The notes beneath the pieces are model-generated. The model was given only the letters and a program-made list of their open reading frames with translations, did not search any database and had not been told where the DNA came from. From Escherichia coli (GTDB taxonomy: Bacteria; Pseudomonadota; Gammaproteobacteria; Enterobacterales; Enterobacteriaceae), in the NCBI RefSeq assembly GCF_003991155.1, contig NZ_CP031293.1: DNA of 64,000 nt. One strand, given 5' to 3'. The translations under genes and the position numbers were made by a program. Position 1 is the stretch's first letter. Every line of letters starts with the position of its first letter. This document shows, piece after piece, positions 19,614 through 51,809 of this stretch.

Positions 19614-21991
19614 TAGATTGACTCCCCCACCTGAGCATCAGTCAATGCCTTGTGCCATATTCTGAAATTCCTGACATGACCAAATAAATGACGTAACCCG
19701 GCTGTAGTCTGGCCTCCAATACGGATAATTGCGGTGTTCTGAATATAGGACCATGTGGTTTTTGTTTCGCTGGATATACGCCCGTTACTTACTGAGCACG
19801 TAGACTGATCTGACTTTACACGCATCCCCATAACCATTTTTTCAAGCAATGCGTTTTCGTTTACCCGTCTGTTAGCTCCTCCAATATCGCAATAAGGAAA
19901 TCCGTCGTAATCTGTTGAATGACCGAAGCCAAGAATAATAGCCGCTCCGGTTTGATGACCGCCGGTATCAAAAACACGCGGTGCTGCATTTGGCGTTTTA
20001 TACCAGTTCTTATGTACCTCACAAAGAACCGTAAAAGGAAGATTATAAAGGTTATTCTTGATTGGGACTGTCACCATATCGCTTGCGCGGGTCGCTGCCG
20101 TCGTTTCTGATATAATAAAAGATGATGCGCAAGGGCCATTTTCAACCTGAGGGGTGGACAGGAAAATATAATCTCCCGATTCAACGACACCACCTTCTTT
20201 TGGTGCGTATTGTATTGCCGAGGTTATGCAGGACTCGTCAATTGCCTGAATCGTTGCCTCTGCAAAAATCCAGCCCGTAACCTCATCCTTGTTAACTCGA
20301 GCAGTGAGCCTGTCGGCAGCTACACCGGTGATTTCAACCGATAAAGACCGCGTATTAACAATGGCATATCCAAGATTAGATGAAGCGCTGCCATCGAAGG
20401 CTTCAAACCTGATCCTTAACCGGAGTTCCAAATCCGTTTTAAATCTGCACGATGTCGTCACACACTTATTATCGCCTGATACATCGACAGCCCCGGTTAC
20501 TGTAACTGACGCCATGTTAACAGGAGAGGTTTTCCCAATCAGAGAATCGTTACAGACAAATTTTCCATAAGTAAAACCAAAACTATCCGTCCCGGTTTCG
20601 GGCACATCCATATTTACCGACTTGCCCCAACTGGCAGGGGTTTCCGAATTGAGCATGTAGTTCGTTCTCTGACCCTCAATAAGCAGGCCATCACGTTCAA
20701 ATCGTGGCTCGTCAATGGCAGCCTCTGTCAGCACACCAGATTTATTAATATAGGTTGCTTTCGATGCGCGTTTAAACTTTACAACCTTATCGCCAGGCAT
20801 CGTTATTTCATCATCACCAATAACAATCTTTTTATATGATGGCGAAAACCCCGTAATCATATCCAGTGAATCGTTAAACGGTATCCACACATCAGGCAGT
20901 GGCTGTAAGACATATTTATACGGCTCTGCTGCCTGACTTGCATACTCTCTGGCTGCGTCTTCACTTGCTTTTGCAGCGGTCTGGCTTGCAGCGGATGCTT
21001 TCGCCGAGTTCGCCGCTGCAGTCTCGCTTGTCTTTGCATTGGTTTCACTGGTTTTTGCTGCTTTTTGACTGTTGGCTGATGCAGTGGCAGAAGCAGCCGC
21101 CGCACTTGCAGAACCAGCTGCGGCACTCTCGCTTTGGGCTGCTGCATCCTGACTGTTTTTCGCCGCAGTTTCGCTGGCTTTAGCATTCGTTTCGCTGGTC
21201 TTCGCTGCCGTCTGGCTGGACTTTGCGTTGGTTTCGCTCGTCTTCGCTGCTTTCTGACTGTTAGCCGCAGCAGTTGCTGATCCAGCTGCTGAAGTCGCAG
21301 AACCGGCTGCTGCGCTCTCGCTTTCAGCTGCTGCAGCCTGGCTGTTTTTCGCCGCAGTTTCACTGGCTTTAGCATTCGTTTCGCTGGTCTTCGCTGCCGT
21401 CTGGCTTGACTTTGCGTTGGTTTCGCTCGTCTTTGCTGCTGTCTCGCTATTTTTCGCGTTGGTTTCTGATTTTTTGGCTGCTGTCGCGGAATTTGCCGAT
21501 GCAGTCTGTGAGGTCGCTGCCGCCTGTGCGCTGTTAGCTGCATTCGTTTCTGAGGTTTTCGCCGCGTTCTTCGATGATGCCGCTGCAGTTTCGGATTTCT
21601 TTGCCGCCGCTGCGCTCTGAGAGGCGGCTTCGGCGTTGCGTGCCACTTCTTCCACCATTGCCTCAAAACGACGCAATGCCTCCGGCATGACATCATCTTC
21701 CGTCATGGCACCGAGAAAATCATTCAGCGTACCTGGTCTGGAGCCTTCATAGACGGTAATGGTCCCAGCATGTGAAGGCGGAAAACCTTCAACCAGCAGG
21801 GTGACGCTGTACTGGCCATACTCAACATCCATGCTGTAACGTCCGGCTTCATCCGGATTTTCAGAAGCCACCGTGTTCACCAGTACCGTGGTGCTGTTAC
21901 GCTTTGCCTTCAGTTGAATAGTGCAGTTCTGTATTGGTTTTCCCGCACCATCTTTCAGCACACCTGAGATTTTTACTGCTGCCATATCCAC
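19613..21991 (-). CDS. stf: Side tail fibre protein (lambda Stf N-terminus, different distal domain)
   Basis: 792 aa. AVKISGVLKDGAGKPIQNCTIQLKAKRNSTTV matches the lambda Stf start. Ala/Ser/Thr fibre repeats follow. The C-terminus ends in the lectin-like NFRIWHKALTDAQV. Confidence 0.85.
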   Translation of the reverse strand: MDMAAVKISGVLKDGAGKPIQNCTIQLKAKRNSTTVLVNTVASENPDEAGRYSMDVEYGQYSVTLLVEGFPPSHAGTITVYEGSRPGTLNDFLGAMTEDDVMPEALRRFEAMVEEVARNAEAASQSAAAAKKSETAAASSKNAAKTSETNAANSAQAAATSQTASANSATAAKKSETNAKNSETAAKTSETNAKSSQTAAKTSETNAKASETAAKNSQAAAAESESAAAGSATSAAGSATAAANSQKAAKTSETNAKSSQTAAKTSETNAKASETAAKNSQDAAAQSESAAAGSASAAAASATASANSQKAAKTSETNAKTSETAAANSAKASAASQTAAKASEDAAREYASQAAEPYKYVLQPLPDVWIPFNDSLDMITGFSPSYKKIVIGDDEITMPGDKVVKFKRASKATYINKSGVLTEAAIDEPRFERDGLLIEGQRTNYMLNSETPASWGKSVNMDVPETGTDSFGFTYGKFVCNDSLIGKTSPVNMASVTVTGAVDVSGDNKCVTTSCRFKTDLELRLRIRFEAFDGSASSNLGYAIVNTRSLSVEITGVAADRLTARVNKDEVTGWIFAEATIQAIDESCITSAIQYAPKEGGVVESGDYIFLSTPQVENGPCASSFIISETTAATRASDMVTVPIKNNLYNLPFTVLCEVHKNWYKTPNAAPRVFDTGGHQTGAAIILGFGHSTDYDGFPYCDIGGANRRVNENALLEKMVMGMRVKSDQSTCSVSNGRISSETKTTWSYIQNTAIIRIGGQTTAGLRHLFGHVRNFRIWHKALTDAQVGESI
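21000..21640. repeat. Intragenic tandem repeats in stf (189-bp period plus shorter AAKTSETNAK-type units)
   Basis: TTTTTCGCCGCAGTTTC(G/A)CTGGCTTTAGCATTCGTTTCGCTGGTCTTCGCTGCCGTCTGGCT recurs at 21156 and 21345. Confidence 0.8.
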
Positions 21992-42425: not shown

Positions 42426-42719
42426 ATGAAAAAAATGTTGTTTTCTGCCGCTCTGGCAATGCTTATTACAGGATGTGCTCAACAGACGTTTACTGTTGGA
42501 AACAAACCGACAGCAGTAACACCAAAGGAAACCATCACCCATCACTTCTTCGTTTCGGGAATTGGACAGGAGAAAACTGTTGATGCAGCCAAAATTTGTG
42601 GCGGCGCAGAAAATGTTGTTAAAACAGAAACCCAGCAAACATTCGTAAATGGATTGCTCGGTTTTATTACTTTAGGCATTTATACTCCGCTGGAAGCGCG
42701 TGTGTATTGCTCACAATAA
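42426..42719 (+). CDS. bor: Bor serum-resistance lipoprotein
   Basis: Trimmed to MKKMLFSAALAMLITGCAQQ (lipobox), giving 97 aa. Opposite strand to the lysis genes, as in lambda. Confidence 0.95.
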   Translation: MKKMLFSAALAMLITGCAQQTFTVGNKPTAVTPKETITHHFFVSGIGQEKTVDAAKICGGAENVVKTETQQTFVNGLLGFITLGIYTPLEARVYCSQ

Positions 42720-43688: not shown

Positions 43689-44015
43689 TTACTCCTTAGA
43701 GCCACCAAACTTGTTACCGATTACTCTCATTGCAGCCCCACGAATAGCATCAACACCGATCAGCCCCACCCCACCACCAATGGCAACAGATAGTGATTTA
43801 GGCCATCCGACATACTCAAGAGCGGATGCAAAAGTCAGCGTCAGAGCGCCACAGAGTAGAATTTCGAGTGTTTTTCGCTTCCAGCCGCCACCACCGCCAA
43901 AATAGGCAATACGTAAACCAGCCATAACAATCGACATAATCACTGCGCCCAGCGGTGTGTCTCCACGCCACCAGCTCTGGACCAACTCCAGCCATGTATT
44001 TGGGTTATGAGGCAT
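43689..44015 (-). CDS. Holin, non-lambda type (about three TM segments, HP1/holin-3-like)
   Basis: 108 aa directly upstream of R. Hydrophobic segments GAVIMSIVMAGLRIAYF, ILLCGALTLTFASAL and AIGGGVGLIGV. No similarity to lambda S. Confidence 0.75.
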   Translation of the reverse strand: MPHNPNTWLELVQSWWRGDTPLGAVIMSIVMAGLRIAYFGGGGGWKRKTLEILLCGALTLTFASALEYVGWPKSLSVAIGGGVGLIGVDAIRGAAMRVIGNKFGGSKE

Positions 44016-44154
44016 TTGTAGTTATCTCTCACCTCGCTGATACAGCAGGTGCAAATTGAGGAAACATCATGTACCGCAAATCAGAAGCGGAAACGTCAAA
44101 GAAGCCGAGTCAATGGATAACTGCGGGATAGGCTAGGACCAAGGAATCCCCAGA

Positions 44155-44189
44155 CCCAGAAACGACAAAACCCGCTCGATGGCGGGTTT
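44155..44189 (-). terminator. tR-prime-like intrinsic terminator upstream of the holin
   Basis: Minus strand reads AAACCCGC-CATCGA-GCGGGTTT followed by TGTCGTTTC. On the plus strand there is no T-run. Confidence 0.5.
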
Positions 44190-44306
44190 AAGCTGTGTGG
44201 CGAAGTGAGCACACTTAACAGATTACGATATTTTTTGCGTACGCGTTAGTGTTTTGATAGAATTTTCAGCCACATAAAAATTCATTCTTATAATTCGGGA
44301 TATATA

Positions 44307-45481
44307 ATGGATATAACTTGTTTAGAATGTGGCAATGTTCTTGACGACCCAACTGTAGCTTGCGATAAATGCGGTGCCACGCCTCATGTTGTAGTGCTGG
44401 GCAAACAATCGTACTTTCCTATTGGTGCTGTAACAGCAAATCTTGAAAAAAATGATTCAAGAGCATTTGATTATCGATTAGGTGAAGTTTGGGATCTAAA
44501 AAATGAAGTCACATCTGAATTCATAACCAGAATTGAGAAAAAATTTAGCCGAAAAAACAAATTTCATAACTTCCTAGACTCAGATCACAACCCTTCATCC
44601 ATTCCTACGATCCTAAAAAAATACATTAATAAGAATAATGAATTCATTGATTTATCTAGAGCTATAATAGAGAAGCTTAAACATAATGCTAATAACGAAT
44701 CGAGAGTTGCCCAACTTCAGGGGGGGAGCGTTGTTTTCATCCACTATAAGTCTACCGAACCAGAGGATTTGGGGAAACTTCTAATCGTAATGGTTGATAA
44801 ACAAAGCGCCTATGACTTTGATTCGGATAAGTTGACCCCAACAAGATTAAATCCAATTAATACCGATGCCTTACGGCAGGCTGCGATGTTCGATTTAACT
44901 TTATTCGAAGCCAGTTATCCAGAAAACAAGGGTGACTCATATGTACATTTCTTGCAAGGTAAATCTAAAAGCGATTTTTTCAAAGACTCATTAGGTTGCC
45001 GACATGATTCGGACAATAAAAGAAGCATTCAGCAATTATTCAGTGCTATAGATATTTTTGCTAGTAAAAACTCACTCGGTCGTGTACTGCGTGATACTAT
45101 TGACAATGAAGTTAAATCCTTACTGGAAAAAAATCAAAAGATAAACACGGAAATAAGTCCGTTAAGATAGAGGATATTTCAAAAATAATTGACTCATGCC
45201 TGACTGATTCACACAAATGTAAGGGAACGTTTGTCGATTTTGTTAATCTTAATGGTTTCCAGATTGACCCTCAATTTGAACCAACTCCTAAAGCAGCTGA
45301 AAGCGCGCTTACAATTGAAGTGGCAGATAACGACAATAATTTTAAGTTGAAAATAATGCGTGGAGCTATTGGAGACGAAAAGTCAAATAAGCCTGTAATT
45401 CTCACTGACAACAAATGCGAAATTGTGATAAAATTGAGTCAGGCAAATTATGATGAACTCAAAAGATATAGAGACAGCTAA
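44307..45481 (+). pseudogene. Zn-ribbon plus YejK/NdpA-like (NA37) nucleoid-associated-type protein, split by a frameshift at an A7 tract
   Basis: The first frame (44307-45170) has CLECG...CDKCG, GGSVVFIHYK, LLIVMVDK and HFLQGKSKSDFFKDSLGC. The -1 frame is open from 45116 to 45478 and carries the family-like C-terminus (...CEIVIKLSQANYDEL). Confidence 0.6.
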
Positions 45482-45483
45482 TA

Positions 45484-46698
45484 ATGACAATTGCTGATGA
45501 CTTATCAAGATTAGCGCAGATTATTAACGGAGCCTCAAGCAGAGTTGAGGGCTACTACACTGTCATAAGTCTTGAAGAAAGCATTGTTATTGTAAATAGT
45601 TCTGAAATAATTAGACTGTTACAATCTATAGGTTATAAAAAGGCAACAACCTGCATCGAAAATAATGAAATTTGGCTAGATCGCCAAGCTTCATCTTGGG
45701 ATGATGCTATAATTTATGAGAATGTTGAGTCTTTTTGGTCTAGAGTAAACACCCAAAACGCTCTTCCGAAAAATTATATCATCGGAACGCCGTTAATACT
45801 CCCTACTTCTAAGAATGAAAGCATCGAAAAAATCCATATTTTCTTTATGTGGAAAGATATCCTTTCATTAATTGCTGATCATCATAACAGTGACTGCTCT
45901 GTCTTATTTTTCACCAATGAAGACAAAAGTTATACAGTCGAACTCACGCATTTTTTACAATATAGCGAGATTAATCGCTTATCGAACTCGTCTCTTAAAT
46001 ATGAAATTATAAAGGAGCTTCTCGACACAATAAAAATCAATGATTTACACAAAAGCGAGCGCAAGCTCGTTATACGCTCAGCCATAAACGAAGTATTTAA
46101 AGCAAATGGTACGTTCAATTTCTTTGACTTGCTTAACTCTACTGAACTCGTCAGGAAAAAATATGATGAACTATATGAGATTTACACAAAGAGGTTTTCT
46201 GTAAATAAAATTCTTAACGAACTCGATGAGAAAAATCTTGAGTTCACGAGTAAAATTAACGAATTCATATCATCTAATCAGACAAAAGCATTGACTATTC
46301 CCGGTGCATTAATAGCAGCTGGTGGCTTAGTGAAGGCTAATGAAACAACCGAAGCAATATTGATTATCGCAGGACTTTGGATGATAAAAAAAGTCAATTA
46401 CATTTCTATTGAGATATTCAATGAAACATTCGACAACTTACGTTCTCGAGTGGAGTCCGCTTTCGATAAGTATTTAAAGTTTGAAGAAAATAAAGAAATC
46501 AAAGATAATGCAGATAGTATTAAGAGTAGCATTACAGGTTTGATTGATAAAGCTAAAAAAAGGATGAGAACTGTTAAATATCTCGCATCAGCCATGTTTT
46601 ATGGAGGCCTTATTTACGTTGGATATAAACAGTTCCCAGTCTTTTTTGAAAAATCGGCAGTAAATCTATTTTATTTTTTATGCCATACTATAAGCTAA
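45484..46698 (+). CDS. 404-aa protein of unknown function with C-terminal transmembrane helices
   Basis: The ATG is 2 nt after the upstream stop. Hydrophobic ALTIPGALIAAGGLV, AILIIAGLWMI and YLASAMFYGGLIYVGY. Very AT-rich. No recognised domain. Confidence 0.6.
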   Translation: MTIADDLSRLAQIINGASSRVEGYYTVISLEESIVIVNSSEIIRLLQSIGYKKATTCIENNEIWLDRQASSWDDAIIYENVESFWSRVNTQNALPKNYIIGTPLILPTSKNESIEKIHIFFMWKDILSLIADHHNSDCSVLFFTNEDKSYTVELTHFLQYSEINRLSNSSLKYEIIKELLDTIKINDLHKSERKLVIRSAINEVFKANGTFNFFDLLNSTELVRKKYDELYEIYTKRFSVNKILNELDEKNLEFTSKINEFISSNQTKALTIPGALIAAGGLVKANETTEAILIIAGLWMIKKVNYISIEIFNETFDNLRSRVESAFDKYLKFEENKEIKDNADSIKSSITGLIDKAKKRMRTVKYLASAMFYGGLIYVGYKQFPVFFEKSAVNLFYFLCHTIS

Positions 46699-47034
46699 CA
46701 TTGCTAAACAGCCGTCAACAAACCCCATTGCAGTTTGCAGTTCCTTCCTAATTGTGCCATCAGAGCATTTTCTCTTCTTCGCAATAGTGCGTAATGAGAT
46801 ACCGATAACAAAGTGGGCGATGATGAGCTCATATTCCTCTGGTTTATACCTTCTCAACCGAGCCACACAACTGTCTATCATGATGCCTTCGTCATCATCA
46901 CACTGAATCCGTGACTTTTTGCCATGAGGTAAAAGTCCCTTGAAACCAGCCGCTATCGGCTGCCAGTCCACTCCGCTATTGTCTGAAGCAGCCCAAGCTC
47001 CCCAACGATCCATTACTTCATACATATCACGCAT
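46678..47034 (-). CDS. quuD: Late antiterminator Q (DLP12 QuuD / phage 82-21 type)
   Basis: Trimmed to MRDMYEVMDRWGAWAASDNSGVDWQPIAAGFKGLL, giving 118 aa. Gene order rusA-ylcG-Q, as in DLP12. Confidence 0.8.
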   Translation of the reverse strand: MRDMYEVMDRWGAWAASDNSGVDWQPIAAGFKGLLPHGKKSRIQCDDDEGIMIDSCVARLRRYKPEEYELIIAHFVIGISLRTIAKKRKCSDGTIRKELQTAMGFVDGCLAMLAYSMA

Positions 47035-47118
47035 CAACTTTCTCCACAAAATCAGGCCAGAACGCCAATTACAAGCAAAAATCAACAAAACAGTATTAGT
47101 TGATTGTTATCTCTGACT

Positions 47119-47259
47119 TCATACTCCTGCTCCTGTCAGGGTTTTGGCGTAATTCTTCAGTATTCGGTAATCGGTCAAAACAGAACCGGGGAAACGATAT
47201 AAGCGCAGACGCCCCCAGCGGTGGCGAAGAAATTCTGCCATATTAAACTCAAACATCAT
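47119..47259 (-). CDS. ylcG: YlcG-like small protein
   Basis: 46 aa, read by hand: [46 protein letters not shown]. Its ATG overlaps the rusA stop (ATGA). Confidence 0.7.
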
Positions 47260-48719: not shown

Positions 48720-49649
48720 TTATGGTTTATTTTCTAGCTCTGATTTTTTGAAAGCTTCTATCAGACGATTAGCATCTTCTGTACCACCAGGAAGCACGTT
48801 TGATTTTTTAAGAATATACGGTGGGAACTTTGTGGTTAAATATTCATGCTTAAACCATCTACGAAACTCTGACAATGCAGAATCAGGATAGGCATTAATG
48901 ATCTGAGGATTGGAACTTGCCTGAAGAAAATCTTCAGGGTAATAATGCTCACAGTCTACTCTTTCTCCAAATTCTGTTGCTAACCCCTTTGCTTTCCAGT
49001 GACGCGCCCAGCAAGAACCAACACTGCCATCAGGTACGGTATGCTGATTAATCGCTAATCCAGCATTGATGAGATCTACCATCATACCTGCAATTTCATT
49101 AAATATAATGAAATACCCATCAGGTATGGTTCCCTTATCTTTTAATAAAGATACTCTGTCATGGTAATGCCTCCACGGGTCCTCCGGTTGATATTTTAGC
49201 GCCTCGTATATAAATGTCTTGAGGCCTTTTTTAGCAAGCTCTCTGTAAGATCTAATTGCAGTCTCACTTTCTGCTTGTTTTGCTTCAAAGGCATAGTATT
49301 CAAGTATAGCCATGCATACAACATCTGGATAAGCATGGTACTCAACACCATTTCGAATTATTGGTATATAAAGTTTTTCATCTGTAAAACCTTCATTAAG
49401 AAGATATGTACCAATAAAAGTCATTCTTCCTTTTTTGAAAATACCGTTCTCAACAGATTGAGCCCACTCATCGGTAATTTCCTTGATTCGCAAACGCTGA
49501 ACACCACAAACATTTGCCAACCCATTCTGAGTAAGGTACGGAATTCCGTTATCGAGTACCCCCATTTCTATACCGTTAATGACAGCCTCTTGCTTAACAT
49601 CTAAGTCTAAAGGTATGGATCTGAGGGAGGTAGTTCTCTGTTGTGCCAT
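48720..49649 (-). CDS. 309-aa protein of unknown function (weak by-eye resemblance of the N-terminal half to P63C-type phage proteins)
   Basis: The ATG at 49649 has an AGGA SD. The track start at 49664 is TTG. AT-rich. Contains motifs HAYPDVVCMAILEYYAFEAK and KTFIYEALKYQ. Confidence 0.5.
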   Translation of the reverse strand: MAQQRTTSLRSIPLDLDVKQEAVINGIEMGVLDNGIPYLTQNGLANVCGVQRLRIKEITDEWAQSVENGIFKKGRMTFIGTYLLNEGFTDEKLYIPIIRNGVEYHAYPDVVCMAILEYYAFEAKQAESETAIRSYRELAKKGLKTFIYEALKYQPEDPWRHYHDRVSLLKDKGTIPDGYFIIFNEIAGMMVDLINAGLAINQHTVPDGSVGSCWARHWKAKGLATEFGERVDCEHYYPEDFLQASSNPQIINAYPDSALSEFRRWFKHEYLTTKFPPYILKKSNVLPGGTEDANRLIEAFKKSELENKP

Positions 49650-50282: not shown

Positions 50283-51809
50283 TCAAAAATAAACCTCACC
50301 ATCAACCATATATTTGAGAGTACTTATCGCCTGCTGGGCGGATATTGTTTTCATTAAAGGATAGTGTTTAAAAACAATGCCATTCATAAAATAGATATCA
50401 CAGGTTTTATTATCTGTATTGATTATGATTTTTTCGAATGTTTTATAGGCAAGTGTACGACATAGCTCTCGCCCATTTTTACTGGTTAAGTCAATAGCAT
50501 GAAAATCACCAAGTGAGCTCACCGCTTTACTCTTCAAAGTTTTTAATGATACAGAAGCCCTTCGTAATTCCTTATCTAATACTCTGATTTTTTCTGCTAT
50601 AGCGGTAACTTCAGGCGCAACAGATAATGCAGCAATTAAATTATTAATTTTCATCTGGAGCTCAATAATTTTCAACTCTAAAGTTTCATTAGCATCTTTC
50701 TTGTTTTCAACTGGTTGGATTTTACTACAATTAAAAAGCAACTCATTAATGATATTATAATCAACCAAATCTCTCTTTATTGATGGCCTGTCACATCGAT
50801 GCAGTCTTCTCATCGGACAAACATAATAGCCATGCAAACTTCCAGATACCGCATGAACAATCATGGTATTACCACAAGCCTCGCACTTCATAACTGTTCG
50901 AAGTAGATTTATCAACATAGGATTTTTGCTACTATTGCTAATACCAAAAGGTGCCAACCGAATTTCCTGCACAGCGTAAAACAAATCATCTGATATGACT
51001 CTGGGATAATAGCCAGCGATTTCACTTATTCCTTTACCTCTTGCACGATATGAAGGTACGCATATACCTATCAGAGCTTTATTCGCTAATAATTTTTCAA
51101 TTACAGAAGGTCCCCATGCACTTTCTTTTCCTGAGAAATTCTTTACAGCATGATCATTTAAATACTTGGCTATTGCATTCAATGAGCGCCTTTCCATCCT
51201 GAGTTTAAAAATTAGCTCAATAGTTTTCACCCTGTCGGGGTCTGGAACAAAAGCCGTTCTTTTGTCATCTAAGGAGAGCCATCTCGGACAAGACGCCGTC
51301 ATAATCGTGCCTGACTCCAGTGCATCCTGCCGTTTTTTCTTCCATGATAATTTAACCCGACTTGACTTTATCTCGCTTTCTTCATTTGCCCTTTGTGCTA
51401 TAAGTATGGCTTTTATTAATGAATATGGATCATTCAAAGAGTCAATATTATAGACTGTATTATCGCAAAGAGTTATAACATCAATACCGTGATTCAAAAT
51501 CAATTTCAGACGCTCAATCGCTTCACCGACTTTTTCTCTTGAAAGTCTGTCCAGACTTTCAACTAACAATGTAGTTCCTGGCAATATATAACCATGCTCT
51601 ATAGCATCTAAAAATTCCGAAAAAGCTCCTGATTGTGCATGCTTTCCTTTGAATGCACTTAATCCTAAATCTTCATATGTTATGGTATCAAGATAATAAT
51701 CACTATTTACCTTTAACCATTCAGCAATAAGTCTTCTCTGTCGGTTTAATGAGTCGCCAGACATCTGACCTGGTGATGAAAATCGCATATATGCTATGGC
51801 TTTTTTCAT
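50283..51809 (-). CDS. ybcK: Large serine recombinase (YbcK-like)
   Basis: 508 aa with resolvase N-domain AIAYMRFSSPGQ...LLVESLDRLSR. Recombinase domain, Zn-ribbon CEACGN...YYVCP...HRCD, and a coiled coil. Confidence 0.85.
   Translation of the reverse strand: MKKAIAYMRFSSPGQMSGDSLNRQRRLIAEWLKVNSDYYLDTITYEDLGLSAFKGKHAQSGAFSEFLDAIEHGYILPGTTLLVESLDRLSREKVGEAIERLKLILNHGIDVITLCDNTVYNIDSLNDPYSLIKAILIAQRANEESEIKSSRVKLSWKKKRQDALESGTIMTASCPRWLSLDDKRTAFVPDPDRVKTIELIFKLRMERRSLNAIAKYLNDHAVKNFSGKESAWGPSVIEKLLANKALIGICVPSYRARGKGISEIAGYYPRVISDDLFYAVQEIRLAPFGISNSSKNPMLINLLRTVMKCEACGNTMIVHAVSGSLHGYYVCPMRRLHRCDRPSIKRDLVDYNIINELLFNCSKIQPVENKKDANETLELKIIELQMKINNLIAALSVAPEVTAIAEKIRVLDKELRRASVSLKTLKSKAVSSLGDFHAIDLTSKNGRELCRTLAYKTFEKIIINTDNKTCDIYFMNGIVFKHYPLMKTISAQQAISTLKYMVDGEVYF

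Follow-up and report, generated by a model that had tools for sequence, protein, structure and literature searches.

What is a two-gene cassette doing in the late region of a lambdoid prophage, on the strand opposite to the late operon, and has such a pair been described before? This question is raised by positions 44307-46698 of a stretch of Escherichia coli DNA of 64,000 nucleotides (nt) (assembly GCF_003991155.1, contig NZ_CP031293.1), hereafter the window. A sequence-only reading had proposed that these two plus-strand genes, in an AT-rich insert of about 2.4 kb between the late antiterminator gene Q and the holin gene, are an undescribed defence module in which a nucleic-acid-binding sensor is coupled to a membrane protein, as in abortive infection. 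Open reading frames (ORFs) and base composition bear out the insert, with a guanine-cytosine (GC) fraction of 0.31-0.39 over 44300-46700 versus 0.44-0.55 in the flanks. We identify the cassette, by comparison of both proteins, as a copy of DS-1, a published and experimentally validated anti-phage system, and the locus itself is therefore already known. Taking all the evidence together, we consider it likely that the pair is a copy of DS-1, that DS-1 works in a PANGU-like manner (PANGU being the one system of such architecture with a mechanistic study behind it; Li et al., bioRxiv, April 2026, 10.64898/2026.04.06.716658), and that the copy carried here is in an inactive state.

The identification relies on two equivalog models of NCBIfam release 20, NF053868 (DS1_1_antiphage, cut-off 330 bits) and NF053869 (DS1_2_antiphage, cut-off 315 bits). 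Gene 1, once a single missing base is restored, encodes 391 amino acids and scores 451.4 bits against the former; gene 2, with 404 amino acids, scores 375.2 bits against the latter. Both values lie above the cut-offs, and the earlier statement that the pair could not be placed in any named family no longer stands. PADLOC-DB 2023 gave no match for either protein and holds no model for them, which explains the failure to place the pair from older knowledge. On identical DNA, gene 2 is annotated exactly as WP_000150292.1 and gene 1, after the one-base repair, corresponds to WP_000355468.1; recent names given by the Prokaryotic Genome Annotation Pipeline are “nucleoid-associated anti-phage protein” for gene 1 and “anti-phage protein” for gene 2. 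The same two accessions constitute transcription unit D390, that is DS-1, in the DefensePredictor study (DeWeirdt et al., Science 2026, PMC13092281; Tables S6 and S8), so the word “undescribed” has to be withdrawn. The pair in the window has the same proteins, the same gene order (A upstream of B, adjacent and on the same strand) and the same 2-nt junction as DS-1, but differs in that DS-1A is frameshifted at a run of seven adenines (A7) and read as 287 residues, DS-1B alone being whole. Accordingly, the genes should be annotated as DS-1A (frameshifted) and DS-1B instead of as hypothetical proteins.

The published DS-1 came from an E. coli isolate, was labelled “predicted novel defense gene” and was replicated (PMC13092281). 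Its reductions in efficiency of plating (EOP), expressed as -log10 values in Table S7 of that study, were 7.6 for Bas1 (no plaques), 2.7 for Bas26, 1.7 for Bas3, 1.7 for T3, 1.0 for T5 and 0.9 for T7, and the plaques were mostly small. The DS-1 rows of this table comprise T1-, T5- and T7-like phages only, with none for T4. The plasmid clone kept the native upstream region and was active with it, and the main text states that the “YejK nucleoid-associated domain” had until then lacked validation in defence. Bas01 belongs to the T1-like Drexlerviridae and Bas26 to the T5-like Markadamsvirinae. Reading the letters alone had thus correctly picked a real defence system, and its picture of a sensor plus a membrane protein acting in an abortive-infection-like way agrees with the DS-1 plaque data as well as with the PANGU preprint.

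The frameshift suspected in gene 1 is real. Most genomes carry eight adenines (A8) where the window carries seven; with A8 restored, the end of gene 1 falls at 45481 and the ATG of gene 2, at 45484, follows after 2 nt, and it is for this restored form that the reported 2-nt spacing holds. The A7 allele cuts DS-1A after residue 275, so that residues 276-391 are lost, among them the invariant or near-invariant columns K284, F309, N314, F324, T327, D341, G356 and K362. Translation ends 314 nt short of the DS-1B start, and the 2-nt stop-start coupling is broken. Sequencing error was rejected as the cause of the A7 run, given that the exact 287-residue product is found on 373 contigs of a large protein collection and is a multi-genome RefSeq protein; the A9 product is found there on 97 contigs and the intact protein on at least 1000. 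Among 106 complete-genome records of the cassette, the tract is A8 in about 100, A7 in 2-3 and A9 in at least 2. DS-1B is intact in all A7 and A9 alleles examined, and A7 occurs in two prophage backgrounds, namely the DLP12-like one of the window and the Shiga toxin (Stx)-phage-like late region of strain 2018-166. Only the E. coli and Salmonella alleles have A8; Raoultella has A6 at this site, and a Klebsiella species has an interrupted tract.

DS-1A is related to the E. coli nucleoid-associated protein YejK (NdpA), as the alignment made by eye had suggested. It matches Pfam NA37 (PF04245) at 1.2e-23; a profile of 46 DS-1A family members matches YejK in the PDB (9be2) at 1.9e-19, with the originally noted motifs (GG.V.F.HY, LL.V.V and FL.G....DFF..LG) aligned; and the AlphaFold model, with a predicted local distance difference test (pLDDT) score of 85, matches only 9be2 in a Foldseek search of the PDB (1.2e-13). 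Fold and domain family are thus shared, but the two proteins are only about 19% identical, and DS-1A has about 36 additional N-terminal residues, is always paired with DS-1B and is prophage-borne. Orthology to YejK was ruled out by the score against the YejK equivalog NF001557 (81.4 bits, cut-off 341), and DS-1A represents a branch of the NA37 superfamily that is paralogous to YejK. The N-terminal extension contains four cysteines (Cys4) in a CxxC-N12-CxxC arrangement (CLECG...CDKCG), previously read as a zinc ribbon. The cysteine pairs are present as described; the ribbon assignment fares less well, with Pfam Zn_Ribbon_1 (PF13240) reaching 13.4 bits (E = 0.07), under the gathering cut-off of 25 bits. 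The Cys4 region is modelled with low confidence (pLDDT 48-65). CxxC...CxxC is found in 24 of the 46 family members, mainly in Enterobacterales, and we regard the motif, from this distribution, as a clade-specific N-terminal add-on and not a family-wide feature.

DS-1B has no Pfam domain, in line with the earlier failure to recognize one, and its family profile gave no match among PDB sequences up to E = 10. The model (pLDDT 85) has an alpha/beta domain that ends near residue 215 and, beyond it, long helices, of which those at about 268-285, 289-303 and 364-383 are moderately hydrophobic, consistent with the 2-3 hydrophobic helices counted before. By far the most conserved part is residues 216-285 (…KRFSVNKILNELDEKNLEFTSKINEFISSNQTKALTIPGALIAAGGLVK…), a helix plus the first hydrophobic helix, with a mean pairwise identity of 67% versus 28% in the N-terminal domain. 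All 41 homologues considered have a net negative charge in that domain (-1 to -19, isoelectric point about 5). In several longer homologues (P0058, P0227, P0232 and P0239), the last hydrophobic helix is followed by a bacterial SH3 domain. Because the SH3 domain of these homologues is usually extracytoplasmic, the C-terminus of DS-1B is probably periplasmic and the N-terminal domain probably cytoplasmic; the SH3 tail further suggests that the C-terminus of this effector family perhaps contacts the cell wall. DS-1B is most likely an inner-membrane protein with a conserved juxtamembrane/transmembrane core.

The two genes travel together. A relative of DS-1A was found in 22 GTDB species-representative genomes; one of these loci ends at a contig edge and was left out, and in 21 of the 21 assessable loci a relative of DS-1B lies directly downstream. 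Paired loci include Pseudomonas, Pantoea, Morganella, Proteus, Marinomonas, Pseudoalteromonas and Vogesella. Ten contexts inspected by hand were all paired, among them those of two relatives that only a profile search detects, which likewise lie behind an NA37 gene. An exhaustive profile search with DS-1B returned 776 representatives at 50% clustering (E ≤ 0.001); among the 150 matches listed of these 776, most are about 400 residues long and aligned over most of their length, with about a dozen short fragments. The pair occupies the same Q-to-holin slot in Raoultella, in a Klebsiella species and in Yersinia, where DS-1B is only 38% identical, and it comes immediately behind Q in Salmonella as well as in E. 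coli O104:H4, there within an Stx-phage-like late region. In Pseudoteredinibacter it resides in an integrase island together with AbiE, AAA_21 and ResIII genes, and in Serratia marcescens it adjoins a BstA_C gene (locus L003, 9423-10334). Co-occurrence, which had been named as a check on the defence proposal, is thus consistent, and relatives are also found in defence islands. Both DS-1 proteins have PHROG families; the cassette DNA and the DS-1B protein gave no match among 50,697 deposited phage genome records. As an observation apart, the replicon annotated as “plasmid unnamed3” in E. coli MS 69-1 (L019, 64 kb, circular) carries DS-1 with an intact A gene and a B gene split into two ORFs; although annotated as a plasmid, it shows a lambdoid terminase, lysis genes and Q in the ~10 kb examined.

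How could such a pair act? In the preprint of Li et al. (10.64898/2026.04.06.716658), type II PANGU consists of a YejK-like protein, Pag2A, and a partner, Pag2B, with an acidic N-terminal “DNA-mimic” (DMK) domain and a C-terminal transmembrane region. Both genes of an E. coli example are required, neither is toxic alone, and the phenotype is abortive infection. A fusion of Pag2A to green fluorescent protein leaves the nucleoid upon T4 infection, the dissociation constant (KD) for binding of Pag2A to the Pag2B N-terminal domain is 19 nM, and T4 denA mutants escape; how Pag2A activates Pag2B is stated by the authors to be unknown. In type I PANGU, the nucleoid protein binds long DNA non-specifically and mutations in its DNA binding render the system constitutively toxic, and the family as a whole is described as horizontally transferred and linked to defence islands (10.64898/2026.04.06.716658). 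To the extent that sequence can tell, DS-1 agrees with the type II architecture in each feature: a YejK-like protein is followed, in an operon, by a partner whose N-terminal domain is net acidic, if not distinctively so, and whose moderately hydrophobic C-terminal helices may be transmembrane. On this likeness, we infer that DS-1 belongs to type II PANGU and that its effector acts on the membrane. By analogy, DS-1A would rest on chromosomal DNA in a healthy cell, would be freed when a phage degrades or displaces the host DNA, and would then bind the N-terminal domain of DS-1B; the membrane effector so switched on may damage membrane integrity and abort the infection. T1-, T5- and T7-type phages degrade host DNA, and that all targets of DS-1 do so fits a genome-integrity sensor. 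A prophage two-gene system of similar outline is RexA/RexB of lambda, expressed in the lysogen, in which a cytoplasmic sensor, responding to a state of the DNA specific to infection, is believed to turn on a membrane protein by which the membrane potential collapses. The likeness goes no further than outline: RexA/RexB lies in the immunity region, whereas DS-1 lies in the Q-holin slot, and Pfam scans of both DS-1 proteins found no Rex family and no sequence relationship to RexA/RexB.

Several points weigh against this interpretation. The mechanism is borrowed from PANGU; none has been published for DS-1 itself, and the DefensePredictor study offers neither a mechanism nor a mutational analysis for it (PMC13092281). 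Phage ranges differ, since E. coli type II PANGU was reported to act on T4 but not on T1 or T5, whereas DS-1 acts on T1-, T5- and T7-like phages; expression differs as well, being induced by isopropyl β-D-1-thiogalactopyranoside for type II PANGU and driven by the native promoter for DS-1. The DefensePredictor paper and the PANGU preprint make no reference to one another, and we found in the preprint no accessions or residue numbers that link its E. coli system to DS-1. The hydrophobic segments of DS-1B are short, the best 19-residue Kyte-Doolittle mean being 1.56, and a net charge of -8 across 215 residues is nothing unusual in a cytoplasmic domain and makes a poor test of the “DNA mimic” feature. 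Finally, the truncated DS-1A ORF, as found, still passes its NCBIfam cut-off with 349 bits, and it is by reasoning from the lost residues that we infer the inactivity of the A7 allele. In spite of this, DS-1 (Science 2026) and type II PANGU (bioRxiv 2026) look like one kind of system, independently described; were the link confirmed, the model of a nucleoid protein as a genome-integrity sensor would extend to T1-, T5- and T7-like phages. This likeness and the recurrent inactivation at the A run go slightly beyond the published work, and neither makes the locus new.

Other roles for the pair can be imagined. DS-1A might bind incoming phage DNA, and DS-1B might hold that DNA at the membrane or entry site, so that infection is stopped early and the cell survives. 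The complete block of Bas1 would also suit such first-line immunity, a prophage-borne system with a membrane component recalls classical superinfection exclusion, and the Cys4 motif could add nucleic-acid contacts. Most effects of DS-1 are, however, small plaques or 10- to 500-fold drops in EOP, which suit abortive infection better; the Cys4 motif is missing in about half of the family; and the sole studied system of this architecture is an abortive-infection system whose nucleoid protein binds the host chromosome non-specifically. We therefore hold direct exclusion to be unlikely. The tight coupling of the two genes by a 2-nt stop-start junction, along with the fact that many abortive-infection systems are toxin-antitoxin pairs, would accommodate a membrane toxin DS-1B restrained by DS-1A until infection removes the latter. 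Yet viable isolates often carry a broken A gene beside an intact, identical B gene (the A7 and A9 contigs counted above, and the window itself), and type II PANGU genes are non-toxic singly and both needed for defence. A toxin-antitoxin pair is consequently very improbable, and the frequency of such alleles leads us to favour DS-1A as an activator, not an antitoxin. That the sensor gene is so often broken at one A run with the effector kept suggests a fitness cost of the sensor, which again argues against a toxin-antitoxin arrangement. We give hardly any credence to cargo unrelated to defence, serving lysogenic conversion or nucleoid remodelling for the benefit of the prophage: the slot does hold conversion genes in other phages, such as nmpC in DLP12, and YejK is a housekeeping nucleoid protein, but plaque assays demonstrate defence for identical proteins, relatives sit in defence islands beside AbiE, AAA_21, ResIII and BstA_C genes, and DS-1A falls far below the YejK equivalog cut-off (81 versus 341 bits).

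As for the state of the present copy, the pair in the window is most likely inactive, because the conserved C-terminus of DS-1A is lost and type II PANGU depends on both of its genes. The truncated protein might nevertheless suffice, or slippage during transcription or translation might restore the full length. The truncated ORF retains the Cys4 motif together with the larger part of the NA37 domain, including the conserved GKSKSDFFK loop, and keeps its score of 349 bits against DS1_1; A runs are known slippage sites. On the other hand, the missing 116 residues include the invariant and near-invariant columns; the effector-contact residues of Pag1A are 278 and 282, so that by analogy the truncation may remove the effector-binding region; type II PANGU required both genes intact; seven adenines are short for efficient slippage; and the tract is not conserved across other genera. 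Residual function of the A7 copy is, in our judgement, rather improbable. Little more can be said for the A8 run as an on/off contingency locus, in which A7 or A9 would reversibly silence the sensor while the effector is kept, giving mixed lysogen populations; we doubt it strongly, although A7 and A9 alleles are found in different prophage backgrounds and together on at least 470 contigs. A selected phase-variation tract was judged unlikely given the A6 run of Raoultella and the interrupted one of a Klebsiella species. Because the A8 run is absent from other genera, the tract looks like a lineage-specific mutational hotspot and not a conserved switch.

The features of the cassette and its borders are collected in Table 1.

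Table 1. Cassette genes, frameshift site and neighbouring elements, in window coordinates.
Feature	Position	Strand	Remarks
holin S (neighbour)	43689-44015	-	first gene of the lysis cassette; RefSeq on identical DNA: “phage holin, lambda family”
conserved non-coding element, ~95 nt	44160..44255	-	upstream of holin; ends in a terminator-like hairpin (44189-44168) plus T-run; left edge of the cargo slot
cassette promoter-like site	44254..44281	+	TTGATA, 16 nt, AAAAAT; consensus match only; at the left junction, where SfII homology ends
GGGA Shine-Dalgarno-like motif	44296-44299	+	follows the promoter-like site
DS-1A 5′ part as read in the window	44307..45170	+	287 residues (275 native + 12 frameshifted); Cys4 motif plus the larger part of the YejK/NA37 domain
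A7 tract, -1 frameshift site	45127..45133	+	A8 in intact alleles (GAA AAA AAA, Glu-Lys-Lys); alignment with PEC403 and LWY24
out-of-frame DS-1A remainder	45134..45481	+	encodes the conserved C-terminal 116 residues; its tail is the ORF 45320-45481
DS-1B	45484..46698	+	intact, 404 residues, WP_000150292.1
late antiterminator Q (neighbour)	46678-47034	-	RefSeq on identical DNA: “antiterminator Q family protein”

The cassette belongs to a DLP12-like lambdoid prophage that lies at a tRNA-Arg gene and spans ~17 kb to 62.6 kb of the window, with the gene order ybcN-ninE-ybcO-rusA-ylcG-Q followed by the lysis genes and iss/bor. Q and DS-1B are convergent, and their 3′ ends overlap by 21 nt. On the other side, homology to phage SfII, which is free of the cassette, begins in the lysis genes and breaks off at 44255. 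The ~95-nt element upstream of the holin is common to SfII, K-12 DLP12, the Yersinia prophage and E. coli O104:H4, whatever cargo adjoins it, and the Yersinia copy shows compensatory stem changes in the hairpin. Since the SfII homology ends at 44255 and the element is shared across prophages, the cargo is confined between the Q stop codon (with the overlap by DS-1B) and this element. The element could be a late-operon leader or a tR′-like terminator. An Rfam scan of 43900-47200 gave nothing meaningful and no family for it, and a search of the element for the late promoter pR′ found no convincing -35/-10 pair.

Different cargo fills the same slot elsewhere. In K-12 DLP12, as had been pointed out, it is nmpC, at the same insertion point and in the same opposite orientation as DS-1; the gene is unrelated and encodes a porin. 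In the isolated phage SfII, the Q-to-holin slot holds an opposite-strand pair, SfII_50 (340 residues) and SfII_49 (194 residues), which runs against the late operon like DS-1 but consists of unrelated genes. Their PHROG matches are only to families of unknown function, and neither has a significant Pfam or NCBIfam match. We consider this pair a candidate for a further uncharacterised cargo or defence pair.

Over positions 1-50933, the window matches E. coli LWY24 at 100% identity, and we take it, on this identity, to be a close relative of that strain with the same A7 allele. LWY24 carries an additional IS3-family element of 1.3 kb in the ybcK recombinase gene (window 50929-50933), which is missing from the window. 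Three further observations concern other parts of the prophage. A second AT-rich insert, at 48720-49649 on the minus strand, encodes a “BstA C-terminal domain-containing protein” (WP_000068668.1) at the position of ybcL-ybcM in K-12 DLP12. Just past the lysis genes, at 42426-42719 on the plus strand, lies iss, a serum-resistance lipoprotein gene homologous to bor, as a further piece of cargo. In the tail-fibre region, at 21014-21444, two overlapping direct repeats of 242 bp are 86% identical and offset by 189 bp.

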